From positions 1-26,880 of the IMG/VR virus record IMGVR_UViG_3300049201_000036: a stretch of 26,880 bases of DNA. One strand, written 5' to 3'. Source of the DNA: a virus (Duplodnaviria; Caudoviricetes). The notes below the pieces were generated by a model, which saw only the letters and a program-made list of their open reading frames with translations, was not told the DNA's origin and made no database searches. How positions within the stretch are numbered: the stretch's first letter is position 1; each line of letters opens with the position of its first letter. Made by a program: the position numbers and the translations under genes. Positions 4,950 through 26,631 of the stretch are shown here, in pieces.

Positions 4950-5245
4950 TTTCGCGAGCGCTGCGACAGGGTGACGCAATAGCACAACCCACGACTAGTG
5001 CACAAGCAGAAACCCCCGCCCCTATCAAAACTCCCTGTGTTTTCTTGAAGACACCAAGTGTGGTCTAGGCTGTTGGTCCATAGGCTTTTACCCCTCCCCC
5101 GGGGTGCGATATTGATCTGTAATGGATACGTGAATACATTTAGACTCGACAGGCCTCCCGAAGGGTGAAAGCCGTATAGCATACGGTTGCGCGCCGACGC
5201 GAAGCGCAGGCGGCAAGGCGAGCGGGAGCGGTAAGCCTTTGCTGG

Positions 5246-5410
5246 TTATACGTGTGCCTTGGTTGCCGGCTCACATGTGGAGATCAGTGCCATCAGCCGG
5301 CCAATTTCCTCGTCCTTGCACTGAACCTTGGCATTTGCGATGTCTCGTTCCTTGCGGGCGTCGTCCAGCTTGGATTCGAGCTCGTTGGTTTCCCCGCCGG
5401 ATCGAACCGC
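5246..5410 (-). pseudogene. Probable frameshifted coiled-coil cassette gene remnant
   Basis: One frame reads ETNELESKLDDARKERDIANAKVQCKDEEIGRLMALISTCEPATKAHV* and stops in the GTTATAC box, but has an upstream in-frame stop and no clear start. Confidence 0.4.
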
Positions 5411-5412
5411 TC

Positions 5413-5532
5413 AGCGAACCAAGCGATACCGCTCTTGGGCTGATGCGTGCAAGTAGGTCCGCCGAGTGTGGCGACGATGTTGCGAGCGAGGCAGGCGGGG
5501 CAGTGGTCGGGTGCGATGCTTATTGGTTGAGC
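5413..5532 (+). repeat. Degenerate attC-like site (candidate)
   Basis: AGCGAAC-CAAGC at the left and GTTGAGC at the right, overlapping the end of ORF 5520-5816; arm pairing is weak. Confidence 0.35.
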
Positions 5533-5816
5533 GCGGATCGCTTCATGGCGCTTTCGATTTCGCTGAGTGCGGCGCGAATAGCCTGCTCGGCATCCAGCGG
5601 GGCGTGTGACCCCTTTGCGCCGACTGCTATCCATCCGGCCATCCAGTTGATGAGAGAGTAGGGGATTTCGTAGCGCAGTCCGGCGTAAGTCAGGATGGCC
5701 ACCGGCTCGGGCGGAACCGCAGGCCAAGCCGAAGGCCGCCACAAGAGAGCCGAATCAGGCACTGAGGAAGGAAGGCCGGTATCTGCCGGCGGTTGGGAGT
5801 TGGTTGGTGTTTCCAT
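5520..5816 (-). CDS. Hypothetical cassette protein whose N-terminus is encoded in the attC-like site
   Basis: 98 aa; N-terminus METPTNSQPPADTG is nearly the same as that of ORF 8120-8614. Confidence 0.65.
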   Translation of the reverse strand: METPTNSQPPADTGLPSSVPDSALLWRPSAWPAVPPEPVAILTYAGLRYEIPYSLINWMAGWIAVGAKGSHAPLDAEQAIRAALSEIESAMKRSALNQ

Positions 5817-5918
5817 GGTTGCGAGGATAGCTCATCCCGTGCGATGGCGACAACCCCGCAGGCGATGTTGTGCACGGTCTGATATACAAACGGCCGTTGG
5901 CTGAATCAGTGGTTAGGC
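5749..5918 (+). repeat. Degenerate attC-like site A
   Basis: GCCGAAT-CAGGC ... GTTAGGC; shares a 45-bp block (42/45) with site F. Confidence 0.55.
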
Positions 5919-6179
5919 GGAAATGGGTTCGGGGCGTTTCACGCCGGAGAATCCGCGGCGCTTGAGCTTCACTTCGACCTTGCCGACCGTCTTTCCGCGA
6001 CGGTCCTTGGCGGTCCAGTAGGCGTATCCGCCTTGCCACCACAGACTGTCGCCCTCGGATATGGAGCGAGCCTCCGCCGTGTTCTCGACGTAGATTGCGC
6101 AGGTGTCGCGCTTGTCCTGAGTGTTCACCCATACGCGATCACCGACGACGATTGTTTCGATTACTTTTCCACCGACCAT
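5913..6179 (-). CDS. Hypothetical cassette protein (beta-rich, 88 aa)
   Basis: AAGGA RBS upstream; TAA stop lies inside GTTAGGC; bounded by complementary R boxes. Confidence 0.8.
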   Translation of the reverse strand: MVGGKVIETIVVGDRVWVNTQDKRDTCAIYVENTAEARSISEGDSLWWQGGYAYWTAKDRRGKTVGKVEVKLKRRGFSGVKRPEPISA

Positions 6180-6225
6180 TTTAGTTCCTTTGTTGAGGTT
6201 GATTTTTACTCGAAAGATTTGAGGC

Positions 6226-6283
6226 GCCTAACCGGCCGCCGGTCGCAACGGGGCTACGCCCCGCGCGACGCCTCGGTGTTGGG
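6226..6283 (+). repeat. attC-like site B (58 bp)
   Basis: GCCTAAC-cggcc-gccggtcgc...gcgacgcc-tcggt-GTTGGGT, with one extra base in the left arm. Confidence 0.85.
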
Positions 6284-6478
6284 TAGAGACTGAAAGCGGT
6301 CCGCCGTTAACATCGTGACAAACGCGCATCCGGAGTCTGGCCCGGCTGCTTCGATGCCTTGGTCGGTCACGAAAATGGACATCTTGAGTTCCTCGCACCA
6401 AAACTGGATGCGATCAGGAGCGGCCACGCGGACGAATGTGAGGTTTTCGGTATGCTCGAATTTTTGTTTGGGAGTCAT
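6254..6478 (-). CDS. Hypothetical cassette protein (74 aa)
   Basis: Fills the B-C interval; C-terminus PNTEASRGA is read from site B. Confidence 0.7.
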   Translation of the reverse strand: MTPKQKFEHTENLTFVRVAAPDRIQFWCEELKMSIFVTDQGIEAAGPDSGCAFVTMLTADRFQSLPNTEASRGA

Positions 6479-6489
6479 GAGGGAAAATT

Positions 6490-6616
6490 GCCCAACCAGG
6501 CGGCGGGAAACAACGCTCGGGGCTCGCTGTGAACTATCCGGAATTTCAGGATAGTTGGCCGTTGTGTATTTCAGTTTTGGTTACGCTCGCGGGCGTTGCT
6601 GGTATCGGTGTTAGGC
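6490..6616 (+). repeat. attC-like site C (127 bp) with inner palindrome
   Basis: GCCCAAC-caggc...caacgctcggg / cgcgggcgttg...tcggt-GTTAGGC. Confidence 0.75.
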
Positions 6617-6822
6617 ATGATGATTTCCGCGTTGCCCGCGTAGGATGTCCCGGCATCCCGGTAGAACCACCAAGCGCCGCACGAGCTATCGACCGCGAAG
6701 CTATGGCCATCGGCGCAGCACACGGTCATCTCCATGTCGCCGGCTTTGTGCGCGATGTTGTCGGAGTGATTTCGCACCATGACTTTATCGCCGATCTGGA
6801 TGTTACTGAGTTTTGTTTTCAT
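6571..6822 (-). CDS. Hypothetical cassette protein (MKTKLSNIQIGDKV...)
   Basis: Fills the C-D interval; C-terminus is read from site C. Confidence 0.7.
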   Translation of the reverse strand: MKTKLSNIQIGDKVMVRNHSDNIAHKAGDMEMTVCCADGHSFAVDSSCGAWWFYRDAGTSYAGNAEIIMPNTDTSNARERNQN

Positions 6823-6834
6823 GGGAAATCTGGA

Positions 6835-6921
6835 GCCCAACTAGGCGGTAGAGAAACAACGCTCGATGCTCGCCGTGAGCTATCCGGAAATTCCGGATAG
6901 TTGGCTGGAACGGTGTTCACC
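6835..6921 (+). repeat. Truncated or hybrid attC-like site D
   Basis: The left ~73 bp repeat the left part of site C; the right arm does not pair; ends cggt-GTTCACC on the DnaC-like stop codon. Confidence 0.6.
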
Positions 6922-7636
6922 GCGCGAAGTCGACGACCTCGCAGATATCCAAGAGGCGGGTCAGGATCGCGTCTTGTCGGATGGCGTTGCGGTCGTTTGT
7001 GCCGGCGATTTCGGCCGAGCGGAGGTTGGTCGAGGCGATGAGCGGAAGGGCGAGCTCGCGGCGGATGTCGAGGAACTGCATAAACCAGCCCTCCGACCAA
7101 TCGGCGCGGGCTGAGAGCATGGCCTGCTGCCCGATGTCATCCATGATGAATACGGGGGCGTTGGCTTGGTCGCGCACCCATCGGCGGGCGTCGTCGGTGC
7201 CGTAGCGAACCTGCTCGTTGAGGCGGGCGAACCAGTCGGCCGCTTTGGCGTAGCGCACGGTGACGCGCTCGTCGATGGCGAGGCGGCGGTATAGATCCGC
7301 AATCGCGCGGGTCTTGCCGCGGCCGGACGGACCGGCTGCCAGGATGCCGCGCGGGGATAGCTGCCAGCCGCGAATGCGTGCGATTTGCGGGGCATACGGG
7401 GCAAGGTTGGGGTTGTCCCACTGGGTGGTGCGGTATGTCGGCCCGATGTCGCTTTCGTAGGCTGCCAGCCGAGCGGCCGCGACCTGCTCGGCGATCATGC
7501 GGGCGGCTCGGGCTTGGCGGCGGGTTGCGATCTCCTCGGGCGACTCGGCCGGTATGCTCGCCATGTCCACGCCGAGTTGGGCGGCGAGAACGGCGACAAA
7601 GTCGGCGACTGGGGCGGGAGATTCGCGGGTGCTCAT
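6917..7636 (-). CDS. DnaC/IstB-like AAA+ ATPase (helicase loader)
   Basis: Walker A GPSGRGKT, Walker B FIMDDIG, IASTNL sensor and ILTRL; start placed at ATG 7636. Confidence 0.88.
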   Translation of the reverse strand: MSTRESPAPVADFVAVLAAQLGVDMASIPAESPEEIATRRQARAARMIAEQVAAARLAAYESDIGPTYRTTQWDNPNLAPYAPQIARIRGWQLSPRGILAAGPSGRGKTRAIADLYRRLAIDERVTVRYAKAADWFARLNEQVRYGTDDARRWVRDQANAPVFIMDDIGQQAMLSARADWSEGWFMQFLDIRRELALPLIASTNLRSAEIAGTNDRNAIRQDAILTRLLDICEVVDFAR

Positions 7637-7673
7637 GTTATCCGACGCTGAGTCGCACAATCACTTGTTCAGC
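7631..7673 (+). repeat. attI-like site 1 (40-bp repeat copy 1 plus R box GTTCAGC)
   Basis: GCTCATGTTATCCGACGCTGAGTCGCACAATCACTTGTTC, 38/40 identical to 13005-13044; not a hairpin; heads array 2. Confidence 0.7.
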
Positions 7674-8058
7674 AAAGCGCAGCAGCTGCCTTTTCCAGCG
7701 CCTCGGCTTCTTCTAGTGCCCGGCGTGCTTCCGCGCGTTTTTCAGCCGCCTTTTCCGCTGGATTATCCGCCATCTGGCTTCGCAGGTGTGTGATAGCCGA
7801 CGAGACCGTTGCGTGCGTCATCGCAAGCGCCCGCCCCGGCCCATGCATGGTCCACGAGAGATCGTAGTATGGGTTTTCCTGCCACCGGTATTCGCGCAGA
7901 TTACAGTTTAGTTCGAGATCGGGGGTGAGCAGCCCAGCGGAGCGGCTCGCCGAAAGACGCGCAGCGACCCACATACAGACATCGGCTTCGGTGATGCGAT
8001 CGAGAATTGTCAGGTCGATTTGATCGGCCGGGATTTTGGTGTATTCGGACATGTGCAT
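7669..8058 (-). CDS. Hypothetical cassette protein (129 aa, helical C-terminus)
   Basis: TGA stop inside GTTCAGC; fills the attI-like 1 to E interval. Confidence 0.75.
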   Translation of the reverse strand: MHMSEYTKIPADQIDLTILDRITEADVCMWVAARLSASRSAGLLTPDLELNCNLREYRWQENPYYDLSWTMHGPGRALAMTHATVSSAITHLRSQMADNPAEKAAEKRAEARRALEEAEALEKAAAALC

Positions 8059-8083
8059 GTTTTTGTGAGGTTAAATTTTCGGA

Positions 8084-8189
8084 GCTGAACCAGGGCGCCA
8101 GAGCCAATGCGAATGGGCGTCAGGGGTTATTCGATAAGCGGCCAACGGACGGGCCTCGCCCGTCGCATGGCTCACCGCCGTTGTTCGAC
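8084..8189 (+). repeat. attC-like site E (106 bp)
   Basis: GCTGAAC...gagccaatgcgaatgggcg / cgcccgtcgcatggctc...GTTCGAC with extra bases in the left arm. Confidence 0.9.
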
Positions 8190-8614
8190 GAACCGGCGAG
8201 GGCCTGCTCGACGTCGAGGTGGAGCCACGAGTGCTCGTAGAGGATTCCGCCATGCTCCTTCGCCGCGGCGTGCACCTTCGCCAGAAGGTCCCGGTGCTGG
8301 ACGTTGCAGCGCGCGGCGAGACGGGCCTCGAAAGCACGGAGGTATCCCGGCGCGGCGAAGCCCTGTAGCCACGAGATCAGGGCGTTTTCGTTCGCCCCCT
8401 TGCCGTCCTCATCGTCGGGGATCACGCCGCCTGTCATGCGGCCGCGGTCCGGCTTATCGTGCCGGCGCTCGATCAGGAAGAGTGTCGTCTTCGGATCGTC
8501 GGCGAGATACCCGCGGAGCCATGCTCCGTCGGCATCCCACAAAATCGTCGAACCAGTCGCTGGAGGAGGAACGCCGGTAGCTGCCGGCGGTTGGGAGTTG
8601 GTTGGATTTTCCAT
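8120..8614 (-). CDS. Hypothetical cassette protein (164 aa)
   Basis: Starts inside site F and stops inside site E. Confidence 0.7.
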   Translation of the reverse strand: MENPTNSQPPAATGVPPPATGSTILWDADGAWLRGYLADDPKTTLFLIERRHDKPDRGRMTGGVIPDDEDGKGANENALISWLQGFAAPGYLRAFEARLAARCNVQHRDLLAKVHAAAKEHGGILYEHSWLHLDVEQALAGSSNNGGEPCDGRGPSVGRLSNNP

Positions 8615-8671
8615 GGTCAGAGAGAGGGCGAGGCATCGCCGCCACCGGCGTTCCTCAGCTGGTTGTTAGGC
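8547..8671 (+). repeat. attC-like site F (125 bp)
   Basis: GTCGAAC-cagtc-gctggag..gaggaacgccggtagc / gccaccggcgttcctcagc-tggtt-GTTAGGC. Confidence 0.9.
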
Positions 8672-8929
8672 ACGGAGCGATTGGCCCACTTGCCACGCAC
8701 GCCGGACGCTTGGCGGCAAGCTTGCCAGCTCCGACTCGTCGTAGTCGTCGAAGATGCCGATGCAGGCGTCTGCCGCGCGAAGCTTGGCAACTAGCTTGCG
8801 CACCTCTTCCGGCTCTCTCTTTAGGTCGTCGGCCGTGCAGACGGCGGCCAGCTTGGCGATCCGGCGGGGATGGGTCGCCGGAATGTTGTCCCGGCCAGGT
8901 GGCATTTTCGATGTATCTATGTTGTTCAT
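8666..8929 (-). CDS. Hypothetical cassette protein (87 aa)
   Basis: TAA stop in GTTAGGC; fills the F-G interval. Confidence 0.75.
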   Translation of the reverse strand: MNNIDTSKMPPGRDNIPATHPRRIAKLAAVCTADDLKREPEEVRKLVAKLRAADACIGIFDDYDESELASLPPSVRRAWQVGQSLRA

Positions 8930-8945
8930 ACGAAATAAAAAGGGT

Positions 8946-9002
8946 GCCTAACCTGACGCCTATCCCAACGAGCTGCGCTCGTGGGATGCCTCGGTGTTCA
9001 GC
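8946..9002 (+). repeat. attC-like site G (57 bp)
   Basis: GCCTAAC-ctgac-gcc(t)atccca(a)cgagc-tgc-gctcgtgggatgcc-tcggt-GTTCAGC; two extrahelical bases. Confidence 0.92.
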
Positions 9003-9243
9003 CGAGGTCGGCGAGGAGCGTCCGGCCATCGTTGGCCAGCGCGAAGCACGCACAGGTTTCGCCGGTCATGTGTCCGTCATCGTCCACGACTTCGCATTCG
9101 CTCACGTATTCGATGAGGCCCACGTCTTCGAGCTGCTTGCAGTGCTGGTAGGTGTCGCCTTTCGCGGCGAGCCCGTCGTGGCCCTGCGATTGAGCGCGGG
9201 CGATGTTTTTCAGAAGCGTGATGTCACTTGGATGTAGTTTCAT
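8998..9243 (-). CDS. Hypothetical cassette protein, winged-helix-like (81 aa)
   Basis: Pattern LLKNI...CKQLEDVGLIE...FALANDGRTLL resembles a wHTH; TGA stop in GTTCAGC. Confidence 0.7.
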   Translation of the reverse strand: MKLHPSDITLLKNIARAQSQGHDGLAAKGDTYQHCKQLEDVGLIEYVSECEVVDDDGHMTGETCACFALANDGRTLLADLG

Positions 9244-9258
9244 TTTCGTGGCGTTTTT

Positions 9259-9352
9259 GCTGAACTAGACGCCGATCCCAACACGGGCCGTCGGCTGCAT
9301 TTGTTATTCGTGGGCCGGAGAGAGGCCCGTGTTGGATGCCTCGGTGTTCTCC
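9259..9352 (+). repeat. attC-like site H (94 bp)
   Basis: GCTGAAC-tagac-gccgatcccaacacgggcc / ggcccgtgttggatgcc-tcggt-GTTCTCC. Confidence 0.92.
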
Positions 9353-10188
9353 TAAAAGCCGGTATCGAAGCAGCCGCAGGGCATTGGCCACGCGTCCACA
9401 TCCTCCAGCAGCTTCATTTGCGCCTTGTCGGCCTTCACCAGATCTTCCCATGACCAGTGCCGCCCGAGGCCCTTCACCGTCGTCGCGGCGGTGGCGTTTC
9501 TTTCCATCTCCACGGCTCGCGCGAAGAGGTCCGGGTTATTCTTCGCCAGCTCGATCACGTCCACCTTGCGCGAAGCCGGGCAGTAGAAGCATGCGCTCTT
9601 TGCCGGCGTGAAGCCGGCTTTGCTCACGACGCGTTCGCACCAGACGCGATCCCAGCCCCAGTGGACCAGCGGATACTGGACCACGAATTTCTTGTCGTCG
9701 TAGTCCTTGAGCCGATGAGTCTCATTCACGTCGTAGCCGATGAGCTTCACGACCTTCCCACCTGCGGCCCACGCATCGAGCGCGGGTTGCCACTTGGCGA
9801 GGTAGCGATTTTGCGGCCGCACCTTGTATTTGTCGGAGCAGGATCGGAAGCCGAACGCCAGAGAGGGCAGCGTGTTCGCGGCGCGCACTTCTGCTTCCAG
9901 CGTGGTCCGGCCGTCCTTCACGATGGTTACGGGCGGCAGGCCCTTCATCACGAGCCACGCCGAGAAGGCGTGCACGAATTCGTAGGTCTCGGGCCTCTCA
10001 CCTCCAGTGTCGGAGAAGAGGATTAGATCGGGGACGACGTGGCGCACCGCTGCCATTTCGATGAGCATGGCGGCGCTATTGGTTCCGCCCCCGAAAGAGA
10101 CCACGATGGGCCATTTTACGGAGGGAGAACCGGCCGCCTCAGACAAGCCGGCTACGGTCCGGCCGGCGGGAGCTTTGAGGGTATTCAT
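9352..10188 (-). CDS. PAPS-reductase-like / PP-loop adenine nucleotide alpha-hydrolase protein carried as a cassette
   Basis: IVVSFGGGTNSAAM PP-loop, FSDTGGERPETY, CSDKYK, YPL and KSACFYCP Cys motif. Confidence 0.85.
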   Translation of the reverse strand: MNTLKAPAGRTVAGLSEAAGSPSVKWPIVVSFGGGTNSAAMLIEMAAVRHVVPDLILFSDTGGERPETYEFVHAFSAWLVMKGLPPVTIVKDGRTTLEAEVRAANTLPSLAFGFRSCSDKYKVRPQNRYLAKWQPALDAWAAGGKVVKLIGYDVNETHRLKDYDDKKFVVQYPLVHWGWDRVWCERVVSKAGFTPAKSACFYCPASRKVDVIELAKNNPDLFARAVEMERNATAATTVKGLGRHWSWEDLVKADKAQMKLLEDVDAWPMPCGCFDTGF

Positions 10189-10245
10189 TGGTTGGTTACG
10201 CTGTCGTTAGATTAGGGGGCCGGCTGTCTGGCCTCGGTGTTGTGC
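10124..10245 (+). repeat. attC-like site I (122 bp)
   Basis: GGAGAAC-cggcc-gcc(t)cagaca(a)gccggc / gccggctgtctggcc-tcggt-GTTGTGC; contains one start codon and one stop codon. Confidence 0.9.
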
Positions 10246-10421
10246 GGAAGATAAAGGGTGGTCCAGTAGTGGCCGCATTCCGCATGCTGAAGCGCTGTAA
10301 GTGTCTCCCATCCTTCGTTGAAGAGACGTGCCATTATCGCGATACCGGCTCGCGCGCTGCCGTGCGTGAAGATGATCTCCATCGTGCGGGCTGGGAGTTT
10401 ATCTTGTTCGGTGAGTTGCAT
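10212..10421 (-). CDS. Hypothetical cassette protein (69 aa)
   Basis: Fills the I-J interval; C-terminus HNTEARQPAP is read from site I. Confidence 0.65.
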   Translation of the reverse strand: MQLTEQDKLPARTMEIIFTHGSARAGIAIMARLFNEGWETLTALQHAECGHYWTTLYLPHNTEARQPAP

Positions 10422-10438
10422 GCTGAGTTAAGTTTTCA

Positions 10439-10498
10439 GCCTAACCAGACGGCCTGTCGCAACGTGGCTACGCCCCGCGCGACGCCTCGGTGTTAAAA
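10439..10498 (+). repeat. attC-like site J (60 bp), sister of site B
   Basis: GCCTAAC...gtcgc...gcgacgcctcggt-GTTAAAA; its 29 bp ending in GTT are identical to site B. Confidence 0.85.
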
Positions 10499-11434
10499 CG
10501 CATTCCTGCGCTGCATGATCGGGTCGTCGGGCGACATGCCCGGGTATTCGCGGGACGTGCCGTGGCCGTGGGCTTTCGCGATGTCGCAGCGGGCCCAGTG
10601 CCGGGCCAAGGCCGGCGCAGTCAGGGCGGCGCCGTCGAAGTGCGTGTGGTAGTTCGCGGCACGTCGGGCGATTTCGAACGGCGTCAGGTCGGGCGAGACC
10701 TTGACGATCTTGGCAAGGGACACGCCGACAGCTCGTGCGGTGTCGGCGGTCAGCTGGGACGGCGCGCCGTCTGTGGCCTCGGCAAGGGCGTCGAAGAGCG
10801 GGTTGCGGTCGCGGGTTCTGGGCGGCGTTGCGGCGGGCGTGGCAGGGGCAGGGGCAGGCGGCGGAGGCGGGGTTGGCTCAGGTGCGGCGGGAGGCACCGC
10901 GAAAAGCTCTGCGGCCTCGCCCCCATCCGGTGCCCCGGCAGGGGCGGCGGAAGATTGATTCCCTTTCTCCTTCCTTTCCCCTTCTCCTTCCCTTTCCCCT
11001 TCCGCTTTCGCAAAAATAACCGACGTTGGTTTCTCTTGGGTTATGCCGTGGGTTATCTCGTGGGGGCCAACGTTGGGTCCCACGTTGGCCCCGGTATTGG
11101 TTTTTTCAGGACGGCCACCACGCAGGCCGTTCTTGCGGGCAACCTCGCGCCGAGTCTTCACCTCGTTCTCTTTTTCTCCGGGGTAAAAGCCGACGATCAG
11201 GTCGTCGCCATCCCACTTCCAGAGGCCGCAAGAGACCGAGACCTCGCGCAGGGTGACGCGGGCGAGCTGCTGCCACTGGCGATCCTTCCAAGTGCGTCCG
11301 CCGACGATGCGGCCGGAGTTCTCTTGGCCGATACAGAAGCGGAGCAGGCAGAGCCAGGTCGAGCGCTCGACGGGTGATGAGCCGACGAACTCGGGGGAGT
11401 CGAGGGTGGATGTGTGAAGATTAAGCCAGTCCAT
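10493..11434 (-). CDS. Phage replication initiator-like protein
   Basis: MDWLNLH N-domain, RKNGLRGGRP, repeat-rich linker, EGEREGEGE tract and helical C-domain ending LARHW; upstream of the DnaC-like gene in the operon. Confidence 0.75.
   Translation of the reverse strand: MDWLNLHTSTLDSPEFVGSSPVERSTWLCLLRFCIGQENSGRIVGGRTWKDRQWQQLARVTLREVSVSCGLWKWDGDDLIVGFYPGEKENEVKTRREVARKNGLRGGRPEKTNTGANVGPNVGPHEITHGITQEKPTSVIFAKAEGEREGEGERKEKGNQSSAAPAGAPDGGEAAELFAVPPAAPEPTPPPPPAPAPATPAATPPRTRDRNPLFDALAEATDGAPSQLTADTARAVGVSLAKIVKVSPDLTPFEIARRAANYHTHFDGAALTAPALARHWARCDIAKAHGHGTSREYPGMSPDDPIMQRRNAF
10960..11092. promoter_or_regulatory. Candidate replication origin inside the initiator gene
   Basis: ~12-bp phased repeats TGGGTTATGCCG / TGGGTTATCTCG, an 11-bp inverted repeat (11063-11073 / 11082-11092) and an adjacent purine/pyrimidine-skewed tract, as in lambdoid O genes. 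Confidence 0.55.
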
Positions 11435-11688
11435 GGCTAGAAAAGAGACTCCGCGCCCCGCGTCCATTTTTGGAAAGACCCTCGAAAGACAAAGGGCGTG
11501 GACGCGGTGGCGCGGGTAATTGGGTGGTGTCTTTCATTTGAACTGAGACTTTTCCGGCGCTTTCCACGCACCGAACCTAAGCCTGAATCGGTCGTAGAAA
11601 TCGGCGCGTGAACTTCAAGCAAGTATTGGTGATATGAATACGTATGTGCGGATTCACTCCGCCATTACGAAAACTTACGGCGGTTAGG

Positions 11689-11898
11689 TTATTTTGAGGC
11701 GATGCAGTCGCCGTCGGTGTTGTAGCCGTCAAAGGCAAAGAAGCAGACAGGGGCGAGTGTGCATCCGTCGCATGTGAACTCGGAAACCTTGCGGCCCTCC
11801 TGCCTCTCGCGCTCCAGTGATTCGTGGCGAAGCTCCGCAAGTTCGTCCGGAGTGCGGGGCGTCTTTAGGTCGGCGAACCTTTCTTCGTCTATGCTCAT
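11689..11898 (-). CDS. Small Cys-rich hypothetical protein
   Basis: CDGC-x4-C...C motif; ATGA overlap with the upstream ORF. Confidence 0.7.
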   Translation of the reverse strand: MSIDEERFADLKTPRTPDELAELRHESLERERQEGRKVSEFTCDGCTLAPVCFFAFDGYNTDGDCIASK

Positions 11899-12251
11899 GT
11901 CGGCATTTGAGCGTCTGCGCGGCCGGCGTGGTAGGCATCCACGACAGCGGACGCCTTGCCGACTTCGTGAGCGATGAGCGCGGGCGACGTTGAGCCGTGG
12001 TGTGGGGCGGCCTTTTCAGTGATCCACCACAGGACATGGTCACAGTCGCCGCTTTCCGTCAGTGCATCCTTCACATCCTGAGGCGCGCCCAACTTATCCA
12101 GCGCGGCAAGCAGGGTGTTGGTTAGGTTGCTGAGAAGGACGATGGTCGTTTTGCTAATCGGTGCCGGAGTAAATCCGGCGTCATAAAGTCCAGCATTTAG
12201 GACTCTCTGGGTTTCGGGGGCATGCGGTCCTAGTTTGTTTGTGGTGTTCAT
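11895..12251 (-). CDS. Hypothetical protein (118 aa)
   Basis: ATGA overlaps at both ends. Confidence 0.65.
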   Translation of the reverse strand: MNTTNKLGPHAPETQRVLNAGLYDAGFTPAPISKTTIVLLSNLTNTLLAALDKLGAPQDVKDALTESGDCDHVLWWITEKAAPHHGSTSPALIAHEVGKASAVVDAYHAGRADAQMPT

Positions 12252-12538
12252 GGGTGGTTTGGAAAAAACGTCGGCAACTCAGTGCACGGCGGCGTGAGGT
12301 AAGCATCTCGCCACGCCTCCACGTCCCATTGGTAGAGCGGAAGCGCTAGGTCCACGGTGCGGAGTTCGTCGCGGTCCTCACGGATCATTGGAATCCGCGG
12401 AAGCAGGATCGTCGCAATGATAGGCGCTGGCCTACGGCGTGGCTTGCTGACCTTCGGTGCGGCCGGCTTCCGCTTTTCAACGTGGCGGCCATACCAGTGC
12501 GCCGTGACCTTGCGGCCTTGATAGATGATGCGCCTCAT
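12248..12538 (-). CDS. Hypothetical basic protein (96 aa)
   Basis: Operon position and stop/start overlap. Confidence 0.6.
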   Translation of the reverse strand: MRRIIYQGRKVTAHWYGRHVEKRKPAAPKVSKPRRRPAPIIATILLPRIPMIREDRDELRTVDLALPLYQWDVEAWRDAYLTPPCTELPTFFPNHP

Positions 12539-12551
12539 AATCGGGTCGGTG

Positions 12552-13010
12552 TTACGGGAAAATTTCCTGCGTGGCCCAAGTTCCCGCGCGCCTGTCGCGC
12601 CAAACGAGAACGAAGCGAATGAAGGGAAAGAGGCGGGCTGCGACCTTGAGCTTCACCGCGGCGTCGTCGCGCATGTGGCCCTTGACCTCGTAGGCGGTGA
12701 GCCGCGATGAGCCGGCGGGGTCAGCGACCATGAAATCCGGATTGTAGCGCACGCCGTTGCCGAGCTTCAGGGCCATCGGCTCGCGTTCGATCCACGCGCC
12801 CGGATGCGTGGCCTTGAGGTGCGCAAAAAACAGCGCCTCGGTTTTGTTCATGCCGGCGCCGGACTGCCGGAGCATCACGCGGCCCTCCGCCGGGTGGTCT
12901 GGCCGAACCGCGACCGAATCGGCCGCTCGCGCACCGCCACCCAGCGTCGCCGCGATCTGCGCGCGGTATCGCTCGGGCAACGACGCGGGGTCTATTCGGG
13001 TCCGGCTCAT
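12552..13010 (-). CDS. PD-(D/E)XK nuclease, DUF1064-like
   Basis: MNKTEA, RYNPDF, AYEVKG and VKLKVAA motifs; start placed at ATG 13010. Confidence 0.8.
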   Translation of the reverse strand: MSRTRIDPASLPERYRAQIAATLGGGARAADSVAVRPDHPAEGRVMLRQSGAGMNKTEALFFAHLKATHPGAWIEREPMALKLGNGVRYNPDFMVADPAGSSRLTAYEVKGHMRDDAAVKLKVAARLFPFIRFVLVWRDRRAGTWATQEIFP

Positions 13011-13049
13011 GTTATCCGACGCTGTGTCGCTCAATCACTTGTTCGCTAC
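13005..13049 (+). repeat. attI-like site 2 (40-bp repeat copy 2 plus R box GTTCGCTAC)
   Basis: GCTCATGTTATCCGACGCTGTGTCGCTCAATCACTTGTTC; heads array 3. Confidence 0.7.
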
Positions 13050-13210
13050 TCGAGTTTCGTCACCAGATGGATGACTTCGGGTGTCGATGAGTTGTCGTAG
13101 GTGGCGACGCGCTGGATTGGCACGGACACTTCGCCGCAGACCCATTCGACCACTACTTCGGGGTCGCCGGGGAATGTATTCAGAATCTGGATGAGTTCGT
13201 TTTTAGTCAT
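13046..13210 (-). CDS. Hypothetical cassette protein (MTKNELIQILNTFPGDPEV...)
   Basis: Common phage small-protein N-terminal pattern; fills the cassette. Confidence 0.7.
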   Translation of the reverse strand: MTKNELIQILNTFPGDPEVVVEWVCGEVSVPIQRVATYDNSSTPEVIHLVTKLE

Positions 13211-13228
13211 AGGTTTCGTTGCGTTTGT

Positions 13229-13342
13229 AGCGAACCAAACGGTGGAGAAGCAACGCTCGGGGCTCAGGGGTTTTCGTGGCTTGGTCCAACGCTCGGGGCT
13301 CGCTGATCGCTCGCCCGAGCGTGTCTCACCTCGGTGTTCAGC
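13229..13342 (+). repeat. attC-like site M (114 bp)
   Basis: AGCGAAC-caaac-ggtggaga..caacgctcggg / cccgagcgtgtctcacc-tcggt-GTTCAGC. Confidence 0.88.
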
Positions 13343-13569
13343 TTGAAGATTCGCCGCCACATGGAGGGCCTAGATTTTTCATTCACGCGCACCGCGATCC
13401 TGCGCCGAAGCTCCGGGGCGTTGGCGTTCCGTATCTCATCGAGTTGCTTATTAGCCCAGTTCTCGCAGTCGGAGCACACGTCCTTGACGGTCGCCGTTTG
13501 GTAGCACGAGCGCAGGTCTGCCATGCTGCTGGCGGGTTGTTGTTTGCCGCATATATCGCATTTAGCCAT
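13264..13569 (-). CDS. Zinc-finger-like cassette protein
   Basis: CDIC...CSDC motifs; C-terminus is read from site M. Confidence 0.75.
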   Translation of the reverse strand: MAKCDICGKQQPASSMADLRSCYQTATVKDVCSDCENWANKQLDEIRNANAPELRRRIAVRVNEKSRPSMWRRIFKLNTEVRHARASDQRAPSVGPSHENP

Positions 13570-13595
13570 TTTGGTATTCGGTTGGTGGTTACGGA

Positions 13596-13689
13596 GCTGA
13601 ACCAGGCGTCGCAGAGAACCCGGCTAAGCGTGGCAGGTAGGCGTAGGGTTTAGGTGGTCGGGCCGGGTTCTCTGGCCTCGGTGTTCAGC
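13596..13689 (+). repeat. attC-like site N (94 bp)
   Basis: GCTGAAC-caggc-gtc(g)cagagaacccggc / gccgggttctctggcc-tcggt-GTTCAGC. Confidence 0.93.
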
Positions 13690-13881
13690 CTATAGCTCAG
13701 GGAGCGCGGCCACCTGCTCCTCGGTCATTTGTCGGGCTTCGATGGTGATGCTCTCGGCCTCGGGGTTTTCGTTGAGCCAGTTGGTGACGCCCGCGATGAC
13801 GGCGTTTTTGTCGTCGGTGACAGTGCGCGAAACTCCGTCCGCCATCTCGGCGGGGAGGACATAGTAGGTTTTCGTTTTCAT
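13690..13881 (-). CDS. Hypothetical acidic cassette protein (63 aa)
   Basis: MKTKTYYV...MTEEQVAALPEL fills the N-O interval. Confidence 0.7.
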   Translation of the reverse strand: MKTKTYYVLPAEMADGVSRTVTDDKNAVIAGVTNWLNENPEAESITIEARQMTEEQVAALPEL

Positions 13882-13902
13882 GGGATATTGTTGGTGTTCG
13901 AG

Positions 13903-13962
13903 GCTGAACCGGGCGGCGGAGGACGACGGCGCTAAGCGCCGCGCCTCACCTCGGTGTTCAGA
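13903..13962 (+). repeat. attC-like site O (60 bp)
   Basis: GCTGAAC-cgggc-ggcggaggacgacggcgct-a-agcgccgcgcctcacc-tcggt-GTTCAGA. Confidence 0.9.
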
Positions 13963-14111
13963 CTGCTTCGTGGCGCCTGCCAATCGAGGCGGGCGGCTGT
14001 GTCTTTCGCGGCCTTGAGGATCTCGACGTAACCCGTGCGTGGGTCGCGGTGCTTGCCGCGCAATGGGCTGAGCTTTCCGCACGCGGGCTTGGTGAAGAGG
14101 GGCTTGGTCAT
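13932..14111 (-). CDS. Hypothetical protein reading into site O
   Basis: ATG 14111 overlaps the upstream stop; ends LNTEVRRGA. Confidence 0.55.
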   Translation of the reverse strand: MTKPLFTKPACGKLSPLRGKHRDPRTGYVEILKAAKDTAARLDWQAPRSSLNTEVRRGA

Positions 14112-14296
14112 GCCACCGCTCCCTTCTCCGCGCGCTTGGCCCGGATGAGCGCAGTTGCGCGGTCGATGTCGCCCTTCGTGACTAATACGATGCGGTGCGC
14201 CTTGGTGCCGGTGCTGCATGCCACGGTCCGAAGCGAATCCCAAATCACCTCGCTCAGCTCGGCGTCGGTCAGTTGGTCTAGGGTGTCGGTGCTCAT
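14108..14296 (-). CDS. Hypothetical protein (62 aa)
   Basis: MSTDTLDQLTDAELSE..., GGGAGG RBS and ATGA overlaps. Confidence 0.65.
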   Translation of the reverse strand: MSTDTLDQLTDAELSEVIWDSLRTVACSTGTKAHRIVLVTKGDIDRATALIRAKRAEKGAVA

Positions 14297-14616
14297 ATTG
14301 AAGCCCTCCCGAAGATCCGGACCGCGCGTGACACCGTTGAGCGTGCGACTCCGAAAAGTGCGGCCGTGTCTTCGTGCGAGCGGCCCTTTGCGGCCTTCGC
14401 GATTTTCTCGAGGTCGATGCGAATCTTTGCCGGCACCATGTTGTTCAGCCGGCACGATCTGCGGACGAGGAACGGCGAGACGCCGAAGCGCTCGACGGTC
14501 GCGCTTGTGCCCTCGCGTGCGGCGAACTTGGCCAGCATGCGCGTCTCTTCTTTGGTGAGCCGGCGGAATATGTTTTTCCCGCCGTTGTCTCGGGTGGGTG
14601 CGTTGAGGCGTTTCAT
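14293..14616 (-). CDS. Helix-turn-helix DNA-binding protein
   Basis: SHEDTAALFGVARSTVSRAV HTH plus a second HTH-like segment. Confidence 0.75.
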   Translation of the reverse strand: MKRLNAPTRDNGGKNIFRRLTKEETRMLAKFAAREGTSATVERFGVSPFLVRRSCRLNNMVPAKIRIDLEKIAKAAKGRSHEDTAALFGVARSTVSRAVRIFGRASI

Positions 14617-17910: not shown

Positions 17911-18207
17911 TTATTCGGGGCGCTGCGCCTCATGGTTTCCTTTCTGCTGAGTTTTGCCCAAAATGGTTTCACCGCCGGCCGCGTCGGCGCGGGGACCCTT
18001 CCCCTGGCTACGACGGTCGCCGCTCTCCTTTTCAGCGGCCAAGCCGGGCGCGGTCACGACGGTGAAAGTTGACGGCGGGACGATCCCGCCAAAGTTGCGA
18101 CGGCGGCTGAACCGGCGAAACGGCCGGCCGGGATGCAGCGGAACAGGCGCGCTCACGTCGCCTCCGCTCGCTGCTACGTCCGCTAGGTATTCGCCGAAGT
18201 CGCTCAT
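17911..18207 (-). CDS. Hypothetical protein (98 aa)
   Basis: ATGA overlap with the methyltransferase stop; no motifs recognised. Confidence 0.45.
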   Translation of the reverse strand: MSDFGEYLADVAASGGDVSAPVPLHPGRPFRRFSRRRNFGGIVPPSTFTVVTAPGLAAEKESGDRRSQGKGPRADAAGGETILGKTQQKGNHEAQRPE

Positions 18208-19202
18208 GTGGTCACGCGGTCGCCGCTGGCTTCGGTGAACGCTTGGATGAATTCCGCGGCGACTTGTGGAACGATAGCGTTGCCGTAACCGCGCAGTCGC
18301 ACCACGCGGGCGGGAACCCCATGAGCCAGCGGGAATGTGCCGGATTCAACGCGCCGCGTTTTTCCATCGGCGCAGGGGATGAGGTCGAATTGCGACCAGC
18401 TAGTAATACCTGAGATTCCCCCGGTTTTACCTGACACAGTGCCGCCTGCCGCGGGAGTTGGTCGAGCCGCAGACGCGTCGAGCCGTCCGGGTTGGTCCCC
18501 GTCGTGCTCATCCCCGGCGTGTCCTTCCAGTCTCTCGCCGACGGAGTCATCCATCCTACGAGCGAGGAGCACCCCGTCGCGGACTTCATGCTCCCATCCT
18601 TCGGAAGTTGGGCCCGGGCATCCGCAGTCGGCGAAGTCGGTGCCGCACAGGGGGCAGTTTCCATCTGCGTCGCACTCGTGATCGAAGACGACGCGCTGCC
18701 AGCCAATGCCGGCGCCCCAAAATAATCGCTGACGGATGTGCGGCGCGCCGACGCCCGCAGCGCACAAATCCGCCGCCCCGACGGCGTAACCCGCGTCTTC
18801 CAAGTCAGCGCATACTCCATCGAGCCAGCCGAGCCCAGCCGAGCTCGCAACCTGCTCGCCAAAGACGACTGGAGGCCGACACTCGCGGATGAGCCCAAAG
18901 AAGGTTGGCCAGAGGTGGCGGGGGTCGGCTCCGCCGAGACCTTTGCCAGCGTCAGAGAATGGCTGGCAGGGACAGGAGCCAGTCCACACAGGTCGAGCTG
19001 CTGGCCATCCTGCGAGTTGCAGGGCGAGACTCCATCCGCCGATGCCGGCGAAGAAGTGACATTGGATGTATCCAGAAAGTTCATTCGGTTTGATTTCGGT
19101 TATGCTGCGTTCGTCCACGTCGCCCGGCGGAATCAGACCTTGGCGGATCAGCTCGCGGAGCCATGCGGCGGCCTTCGGGTCGAACTCGTTGTAGTAGTTC
19201 AC
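18204..19202 (-). CDS. DNA (cytosine-5)-methyltransferase, large polypeptide
   Basis: Motif I FFAGIGG, IV GSCPCQPFS, VI GEQV, VIII PHIRQRLF and X LRGYGNAIVPQVA; GTG start at 19202 overlaps the upstream TGA. Confidence 0.92.
   Translation of the reverse strand: MNYYNEFDPKAAAWLRELIRQGLIPPGDVDERSITEIKPNELSGYIQCHFFAGIGGWSLALQLAGWPAARPVWTGSCPCQPFSDAGKGLGGADPRHLWPTFFGLIRECRPPVVFGEQVASSAGLGWLDGVCADLEDAGYAVGAADLCAAGVGAPHIRQRLFWGAGIGWQRVVFDHECDADGNCPLCGTDFADCGCPGPTSEGWEHEVRDGVLLARRMDDSVGERLEGHAGDEHDGDQPGRLDASAARPTPAAGGTVSGKTGGISGITSWSQFDLIPCADGKTRRVESGTFPLAHGVPARVVRLRGYGNAIVPQVAAEFIQAFTEASGDRVTT
18212..19084 (-). CDS. Alternative-frame polypeptide nested in the methyltransferase, carrying a motif IX-like segment (true start uncertain)
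   Basis: 290 open codons in a second frame with GWMTPSARDWKD, LDQLPRQA and GALNPAHSRWLMGFPPAW. Confidence 0.7.
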   Translation of the reverse strand: MNFLDTSNVTSSPASADGVSPCNSQDGQQLDLCGLAPVPASHSLTLAKVSAEPTPATSGQPSLGSSASVGLQSSLASRLRARLGSAGSMEYALTWKTRVTPSGRRICALRASARRTSVSDYFGAPALAGSASSSITSATQMETAPCAAPTSPTADARAQLPKDGSMKSATGCSSLVGWMTPSARDWKDTPGMSTTGTNPDGSTRLRLDQLPRQAALCQVKPGESQVLLAGRNSTSSPAPMEKRGALNPAHSRWLMGFPPAWCDCAVTATLSFHKSPRNSSKRSPKPAATA

Positions 19203-25416: not shown

Positions 25417-26631
25417 TCAAACCGACGGCACCTTGGCCAGCTCTGCCGCGGCCTGATCGAGTTCCGTGTGCGTGTAGCCCCGATTTACCGCCTCGTCCTC
25501 GTGGCCGATCAGCCGCATCCGCCAGTCCTCGCCGACGCCCGCCGCAGCAAGCCACGAAGAGAGCGAGTGCCTGAGAGAGTGGAGCGAATATTCGGCGAGT
25601 CGCCGGCCGAGCCCTCGCCCCTCTCCGCTGGCGAACTCCTGCACGATCCCGGCACGCGGCAGGATGCCCCGGCGGAACTCGTTCGAGACGTGCCGGCGCT
25701 GCATGGCTGCGATATGCGGCATGACCTTGCCACGCCTGTCCGCCTCGGGCGTCCGCGCCAGATGCGCAGCAAGCGAGGCATGGAGCGGAATCCAGTGCTC
25801 GTCCCCGTTCTTCGCGCGCTCGAGCATGATCCGGCGCCGGGTCAAATCGACCTGCGCCCATGAAAGCTGCGCCGCCTCCTGTTGCCGCGCGCCGGTGTAG
25901 CCGCACACCATTACGAGGGTCTGCCAGTCGGGCGGTAGCGTGAAGTTTTTGCCGCGCCCTCCGGCGCCCGGTCGCACGTAGTCCGGCGCCGTCACCCTCA
26001 CCAATTCACGGAATTGCTCAAACGTGAACGCACGTCGCTTCTGCGCGGTTCGCTTCTCGCCCTTCACGTTGATCCCGCGGGCGGGGTTGACGGAGAGAAG
26101 GCCGGTCGTGTGCGCCTCGGCGAATGCCTGAGCAAGCACCATCAGCGCCTTGTTTACCGTGCGCGCCGACTTACCCGCCGCCCCCTCAGCGTCGCGGAAC
26201 TCGACCACGCGCGCGCCCGTGATCTCGCCAAGCGGGCCGCCGGCGCGAGGGCCGAGGAAGGCAAGGAAGCCGTCAACGATGCTGCTGTAGCGGACGTAGG
26301 AGGCGGGCTTGAGCGACTTTTCCCGCCCGCGCAGCCAGCCCCGCAAGTAGTCGTCAGTCTTGACCGTCGCCCCCGTGCTGACGCCCACGATGGCCTCGAT
26401 CTCAGACAGGAAGCGCCGGGCCGCGCTTTCACCCCATCGCTTCTCCGCTGCTGCCAGAGCCGCGCGCTCGTAGCTGATCGCGAGTTGCAGCGCCTTGGTC
26501 TTGTCGTCCGTGCCGGCGGATCTTTGGACGCGACGAAACACGGGCTTTCCCTTGTCGTCGATCTGCCCGGTCGGCATCTTGTAGCACGCGAACCAGTGAG
26601 AAGTGCCTGCGCGAGATCGAACGGAAGCCAT
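25417..26631 (-). CDS. int: Phage integrase (tyrosine recombinase)
   Basis: Catalytic R (YTGARQQE), K (AKNG), HSLRH, IGH and Y (RGYTH), with N-terminal arm-binding and core-binding regions; start placed at ATG 26631. Confidence 0.93.
   Translation of the reverse strand: MASVRSRAGTSHWFACYKMPTGQIDDKGKPVFRRVQRSAGTDDKTKALQLAISYERAALAAAEKRWGESAARRFLSEIEAIVGVSTGATVKTDDYLRGWLRGREKSLKPASYVRYSSIVDGFLAFLGPRAGGPLGEITGARVVEFRDAEGAAGKSARTVNKALMVLAQAFAEAHTTGLLSVNPARGINVKGEKRTAQKRRAFTFEQFRELVRVTAPDYVRPGAGGRGKNFTLPPDWQTLVMVCGYTGARQQEAAQLSWAQVDLTRRRIMLERAKNGDEHWIPLHASLAAHLARTPEADRRGKVMPHIAAMQRRHVSNEFRRGILPRAGIVQEFASGEGRGLGRRLAEYSLHSLRHSLSSWLAAAGVGEDWRMRLIGHEDEAVNRGYTHTELDQAAAELAKVPSV

Follow-up and report, generated by a model that had tools for sequence, protein, structure and literature searches.

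The DNA analysed here, which we call the window, is an entire linear viral record of 26,880 bp (IMG/VR IMGVR_UViG_3300049201_000036; Duplodnaviria, Caudoviricetes), with an estimated CheckV completeness of 33%. It encodes a portal protein, a terminase, an HNH protein, a DnaC-like helicase loader, a nuclease, recombination genes, a methylase and an ordinary phage integrase. Named homologues suggest that the host is a member of the Opitutaceae, and the metagenomes holding related DNA come from soil and rhizosphere. Two near-identical short sequences, sites A and B, each lie between the start codon of a phage core gene and an array of integron cassettes. These sites are the subject of this study, and the features around them are as follows.

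7637 to 7673, + strand: candidate attI-type site A, recognised from the repeat, the R'' match, the layout scan and the attI1 alignment.
13011 to 13047, + strand: candidate attI-type site B, recognised on the same four grounds.
7668 to 10492, + strand: array 2, six cassettes with antisense open reading frames (ORFs).
13042 to 13956, + strand: array 3, three cassettes with antisense ORFs.
6917 to 7636, - strand: DnaC-like helicase loader (dnaC), 239 aa, from PHROG 3277/50, PF01695 and homologue N-termini.
12552 to 13010, - strand: Holliday-junction-resolvase-like nuclease, 152 aa, from PHROG 190 and homologue alignment.
10493 to 11434, - strand: putative replication initiator gene (rep), from its position and its likeness to the neighbours seen in relatives, with no family match.
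5245 to 6921, + strand: array 1, an attC array with antisense cassettes that runs up to the dnaC stop codon and serves as an internal contrast.
25417 to 26631, - strand: ordinary phage integrase (phrog_1).

The first-pass annotation of this DNA had drawn attention to a 40-mer present at 7631-7670 and 13005-13044 with 38 of 40 positions identical. We observed exactly these two matches in the window, with no third copy, and none in any of 100 shuffles. The two sites mismatch only at 13025 and 13031 (site B coordinates). The repeat does lack a stable hairpin, as had been stated: its folding energies ranged from -3.3 to -5.4 kcal/mol, and 10-24% of base shuffles folded equally well. It contains a short CGAC-N5-GTCG dyad. 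Site A starts with the left box GTTATCC, whose G at 7637 is the proposed entry crossover, and continues through the dyad to the L box GCACAAT (7655-7661), a 5-nt spacer, the right crossover G^TT at 7667 and the R box GTTCAGC; the core between both crossovers spans 7638-7667, or 30 bp. The corresponding elements of site B are the left box G at 13011, the L box GCTCAAT (13029-13035), the crossover G^TT at 13041 and the R box GTTCGCT. In both sites the inverted L box (GCACAAT or GCTCAAT, followed by CACTT) lies 5 nt upstream of the R box, and the R-box 7-mers stray from strict GTTRRRY, like many junctions of these arrays. A box resembling direct repeat 1 (DR1), GTTA, stands 30 bp upstream of the right crossover; there is no equivalent of direct repeat 2 (DR2), because gene sequence starts at that place.

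As first described, each copy of the repeat leads an attC array; the + strand is the top strand, an orientation assigned because the extra bases sit on the left arm in most of 12 aligned attC sites. Array 2 has attC starts at 8084, 8547, 8946, 9259, 10124 and 10439 and junctions at 8183, 8665, 8996, 9346, 10239 and 10492, with R' and R'' matching at 7/7 positions in five cassettes and 5/7 in one; its antisense ORF at 9352-10188 encodes a phosphoadenosine phosphosulphate (PAPS)-reductase-domain protein. In array 3, the attC starts are 13229, 13596 and 13903, the junctions 13336, 13683 and 13956, and the match is 7/7 in all three cassettes. GTT is present at all junctions of the window arrays. 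With at least two attC sites each (six and three) and no nearby intI, arrays 2 and 3 are attC-site clusters without an integron-integrase (CALINs). They are not complete integrons, as no intI stands beside an attI and the cassette ORFs are antisense rather than expressed in sense from the cassette promoter Pc.

We next consider what follows the right crossover. At both A and B, the R'' of the first cassette is the exact complement (7/7) of the 7-mer at the site. Across relatives, the first cassette varies, as the annotation had anticipated: eight different sequences stand behind the right G^TT, two in the window and one each in the sister phage G001, runs X2, X3 and X4, and contigs L109 and L152. 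L002 and L003, being 100% identical to the window, were not counted as independent, and runs X2 and X3 also contain near-identical DNA. G001 carries a single copy of the site, with the letters of copy A, at its nuclease start, followed by a different first cassette whose R'' matches at 7/7. The first cassette of X2 agrees with the second cassette of G001 at 28 of 30 letters (compared by eye), a shift that is the reordering expected of an integron. The switch in sequence also corrects the span of the repeat: the identity holds, and the 40th base (C) is part of the cassette, relatives having A. Taken together, these alignments indicate that the site is one that has been used for cassette capture.

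To place the sites among known ones, we compared them with viral and metagenomic DNA. A loose-pattern search matched 53 stretches (30 viral, 23 metagenome), most of which fall within long unrelated ORFs and appear to be chance. The best matches beyond this phage group were L109/L136, a single element encountered twice (29/33), and then L152 (28/33), with the next at 24/33. In these phage-like contigs the right 18 bp are identical to copy A, and a divergent bottom-strand ORF has its ATG 5 nt left of the GTTA box. The top family of this ORF is the integron integrase TIGR02249 (233 bits), and it shares 38% identity with IntI1 over 316 aa without a large gap. The hidden Markov model scan covered five flanking ORFs; intI beside the remaining matches was judged by eye. 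We then scanned 80 viral loci related to the L109/L152-type integrase, scoring 59 and leaving out 21 (12 with no ATG found, 6 duplicates and 3 near contig ends). Of the 59, 18 have a GTTA..AAT..GTT layout no more than 45 nt from the start, 17 of them with a spacing of 30-31. The layout occurs in 0 of 354 control windows taken inside the gene, and in the window itself it matches sites A and B and nothing else. The attI1 pattern given earlier, ATGTTA-N11-AGTCGC-N11-GTT, proved correct against a fetched class 1 sequence, and this attI1 aligns with the sites at GTTA, GTCG, AA and GTT.

Given these results, sites A and B are very probably attI-type. The proposal that the phage carries primary insertion sites with core genes in the position of intI is supported by the intI-adjacent homologues: because homologous sites adjoin a divergent intI-like gene in other phage-like contigs, the core genes occupy the usual place of intI. 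Double-strand binding and recombination by IntI at A and B are putative functions. Other comparisons were negative. No near copies of the site were found among 80 viral nuclease loci, and a strict pattern for a host attI had 0 matches in GTDB genomes. DnaC alignment in genomes gave 14 distant loci, none from Opitutaceae. The BLASTN comparison that had been advised, made with 7600-7700 against GenBank phages, returned one chance-level match.

Might the repeat instead control dnaC and the nuclease, as an operator or a translation-control element, and play no part in integration? Its place directly upstream of two DNA-metabolism genes and its short dyad would fit. However, it is absent before the 95%-identical dnaC of the sister phage and before 10 of 10 scored nuclease homologues; it is conserved instead beside intI-like genes and in attI1; and the sequence switches exactly at G^TT, with matching R'' boxes. 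A search for a sigma-70-like promoter in 5000-14500, a weak test, found none. We therefore consider this explanation highly improbable. The same low probability applies to reading the site as an attC that has decayed, or as a secondary site arising by chance, at which arrays began. Array 1 shows that arrays are possible without such a site, as its head has none; its left junction and first attC are degenerate. By eye, the site also faintly resembles the left arm of the 10439 attC (GACG-N4-GTCGCA). Against it, the site forms no hairpin, is 28-29/33 identical to intI-adjacent sites and is conserved across phages and samples.

Several observations concern related sites elsewhere. In IMG/VR, 355 stretches encode a relative of the L109/L152-type integrase at E <= 1e-3, possibly including other tyrosine recombinases, which suggests that phage-borne integrons are commoner than the 9 GenBank records. 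A 68-kb phage, G002 (87% complete, no IntI found), has an attI-class site (L148 6001-6033, - strand) that leads a row of antisense cassettes, and there is no start codon at its left flank. Four bacterial-looking loci (L141, L146, L153 and L133) have the layout GTTAT-x-CGAC-N5-GTCG, followed by sense cassettes, and no intI ORF was seen in their short flanks. L141, L146 and L153 end in an attI2-like core and have about 200 bp upstream in common, and their first cassettes differ.

No IntI was found in the window record (G000) or in G001, so the cassette enzyme would come in trans. The integrase encoded in the window was rejected as this enzyme, since it has no TIGR02249 match and is 23% identical to IntI1 across 175 aa. 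For the cognate clade, the named integrases come from Opitutaceae metagenome-assembled genomes.

The starts of the genes beside the sites lie at the left boundary of the repeat. The left GTT box of site A begins immediately next to the dnaC ATG, as does that of site B next to the nuclease ATG. The N-termini MCDSASDNMS and MSDTASDNMS, read earlier from the TTG start of the longest ORF, are unlikely: homologues align from the ATGs at 7636 and 13010, and the database gene calls for the loader and the nuclease are 239 and 152 aa. The repeat does carry the core-gene starts, in that the ATG lies inside it, but it encodes just Met-Ser plus leader and not the long N-termini. ATG-AGC is the commonest gene start of this phage (15 of 45 listed positions, 2 of the 45 being misplaced). 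We rejected the idea that it is a captured intI start, as the intI ATG lies 5-41 nt from the box and the N-termini belong to the genes themselves. The class 1 intI1 start (L156 1405-1420) has a CAT-N5-GTTAT arrangement, as in L109 and L152.

These starts bear on what was duplicated. The 40-mer as a unit is not supported, since its first seven bases belong to the flanking gene and a site-less allele retains them. This allele, on an X6 contig, matches the window along the nuclease start as far as G13011; the DNA beyond is different and places a TGA 2 nt ahead of the ATG, which makes GCTCATG part of the gene. Identity with L109 and L152 starts at the left GTTA. One X3 contig has a tandem, a diverged core followed head to tail by a second core, joined at G^TT. 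The rep TAA stop overlaps the final junction of array 2 (G^TTAAAAC), and removing array 2 at G^TT yields rep TAA-C-ATG dnaC. These two genes overlap or lie at most 2 nt apart in 6 of 6 distant relatives examined, a comparison from which the weak locus L247 was left out; locus L241 reads TGA-C-ATG. Removal of array 3 from G001 yields an in-frame TGA-AC-ATG, and nuclease homologues are coupled to the preceding gene in 9 of 10 scored cases (3 of 13 loci were unscorable). The distance from ATG to box is 0 nt in the window, versus 5-41 nt in all 18 intI-linked sites. By these boundaries, the shared unit is the 30 bp between the two GTT boxes.

Consequently, our model, which we favour with moderate confidence, suggests that a phage in which no intI was found carries attI-type docking sites that arrived in the form of a 30-bp core leading a cassette circle, with IntI acting in trans. 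First, recombination by an IntI from the host or a co-resident phage would join an attC to the left GTT box (the DR1-like one) of an intact attI, so that the excised circle would consist of core, cassette and attC. The attC of this circle would then insert at a GTT secondary site provided by a stop-to-start junction (TAAC-ATG or TGAAC-ATG on the bottom strand), leaving both coupled genes intact. Finally, the delivered core could accept further cassettes at its right G^TT, so that an array would grow inside the early operon and its antisense cassette ORFs would be read along with the phage transcript. Because the sister phage shares B, this site is probably the older position and A a later copy. 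The single steps have precedents. IntI inserts attC cassettes at GWT genome sites and excises cassettes at nearby other sites, and attI1 hardly serves as a donor (bioRxiv 10.1101/2022.09.11.507474); attI fragments travel in cassettes and remain active (PMC12901181); attI1 without DR2 still recombines, at a lower rate (PMC3518468); and rearrangements use secondary GNT sites (PMC10127599).

More tentatively, and with somewhat less confidence than in the model itself, we hypothesize that attI may be mobile: its upstream GTT box would act as a second crossover, and the core would be planted scarlessly at stop-start junctions by a shared IntI in trans. A mobile attI would give integrase-free phages, and perhaps chromosomes, new capture points, amounting to a distributed, self-seeding integron.

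A number of observations weigh against the 30-bp core model. The window record, in which no IntI was found, is 33% complete by CheckV. The integrases adjoining the L109 and L152 sites score under the TIGR02249 cut-off (233 vs 265 bits), and the GTTA..AAT..GTT pattern was written after the intI-like loci had been viewed. The X6 allele agrees for only one base past the start codon. The X3 tandem rests on a single 151-nt contig at depth 4, and its core could equally come from slippage between two TGTT repeats. Ahead of TTATCC, the left flanks of X4 and of the outer X3 core have a final A instead of G, an outcome not expected from a clean G^TT insertion. The reconstruction fails for array 3 of the window, because an ATG-started ORF from 14111 reads through the junction with the TGA out of frame. 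An empty rep-dnaC allele with the window flanks was not seen, and in G001 this position holds an unrelated 148-codon ORF and no site. Lastly, no account of a crossover at DR1 was found in the literature covered, which includes few subscription papers. Contig joints skipping array 2 or 3 were absent among the joints listed for four runs, and contigs cannot show absence.

Some of these points favour an integron relic, in which an intI-attI module before the nuclease lost its intI and the 40-mer, including ATG-AGC, was copied to dnaC by illegitimate or homologous recombination; the sites would then be real attI whose spread was not made by an integrase. Copies A and B share GCTCAT, and their flanks share ATTC..GGGT just past it, which fits ordinary copying and counts against our model, and the G is missing from two outside flanks. 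In this family, phage intI-attI modules occupy differing positions (before an HNH gene in L109, before a methylase-like gene in L152), and the second attI of Shewanella prophage M16-3 lies in a copy of at least 130 bp. Yet no intI remnant was found, and a relic leaves unexplained the exact TAA-C-ATG reconstruction, the 0-nt spacing versus 5-41 nt, and the site-less allele that retains GCTCATG; ATG-AGC is common in this phage anyway. We regard the relic as rather unlikely and retain delivery of a 30-bp core as our model.

Further features of the flanks and arrays were recorded. In X4, an exact core copy follows a perfect 10-bp hairpin resembling a bottom-strand terminator (the flank before 13012); this context is not a phage gene start and may be chromosomal. 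At 13932-14111, a small ORF crosses the junction that closes array 3, and its stop lies inside the attC; were the array absent, this ORF would continue in frame to the nuclease ATG. Several cassette ORFs (regions 8547-8671, 10124-10245 and 8084-8189) have their starts in the loop of their own attC, and their translation extends across R''. The attC at 13229-13342 has an internal repeat of a 15-nt segment. The ORFs at 5520-5816 and 8120-8614 have a common 81-nt start region, 83% identical, and the array 1 attC sites at 6490 (6490-6616) and 6835 (6835-6921) have a 53-nt palindromic stretch in common. At the array 1 position, G001 has other cassettes, and its last junction is GCT, not GTT.

The sister phage and the remaining genes complete the picture. 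The gene order of G001 leads from the nuclease to integrase, tail, head and terminase genes and round to rep; because this run circles round, the genome looks nearly whole despite a CheckV value of 56%. The G001 nuclease (L001 402-1014) has the first ~22 and last ~11 codons of the window gene and a different, resolvase-like middle, and the long ORF starts at 893. Within the window, the C5 methylase gene (18204-19202) is overlapped by a 290-aa ORF at 18212-19084 in another frame of the same strand.

An attI is hard to recognise and is usually treated as fixed, one per integron, beside intI. The window and its relatives offer a short conserved attI with natural variants, heading changing arrays without an adjoining intI, and the GTTA..AAT..GTT layout is usable as a search handle for phage attI. 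If the left-box route is true, it would give a testable origin for integrase-less arrays besides intI loss, assign the DR1-like box a second role, and open a route to phage mosaicism in which genes are inserted precisely between coupled core genes. With delivery by an enzyme from elsewhere, points of gene capture could spread within a virus genome. The literature covered, again with most subscription papers outside it, yielded no account of an attI core moved by an upstream-box crossover.

How do sites A and B compare with known systems? The attI1 of class 1 integrons is 65 bp long and consists of DR2, DR1, L box and R box (PMC12901181). The phage sites resemble it in the upstream GTT box, the GTCG, the AA of the L box, the 5-nt spacer and the G^TT, in not being a hairpin and in heading an attC array. 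They differ in having 30 rather than 32 bp between boxes, no DR2 and no adjoining intI, and in their two copies, antisense cassette ORFs and position between phage core genes. Also comparable are the phage-borne attI with an Opitutaceae-type IntI in L109 and L152, where a cassette with matching R'' also follows and a bottom-strand gene reads away; there this gene is intI, 5 nt from the box, whereas here it is dnaC or the nuclease, at 0 nt.

Phage integrons, CALINs and a prophage with two attI have already been published (PMC9892861). Shewanella prophage M16-3, thought to be cryptic, contains a complete integron together with a CALIN that has its own attI (PMC9892861), so that this phage genome, too, has two attI, of which one stands at the head of an array located away from intI. 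Unlike the phage studied here, M16-3 encodes IntI, and its cassette ORFs are annotated as reading away from intI; as a second case of the 30-bp unit it was rejected, its attI copy being at least 130 bp. In the Delta-attI cassettes of class 1 and 2 integrons, attI fragments likewise travel with cassettes and stay recombinogenic (PMC12901181); there the fragment replaces the attC downstream of the ORF, whereas here it lies ahead of the cassette, has the upstream GTT box as its start and would found a new array. Finally, the sites recall attG insertion, which yields single attC sites lacking integron-integrases (SALINs) by inserting an attC at GWT sites outside integrons; the passages covered describe it for single cassettes and not for the transfer of a docking site (bioRxiv 10.1101/2022.09.11.507474).

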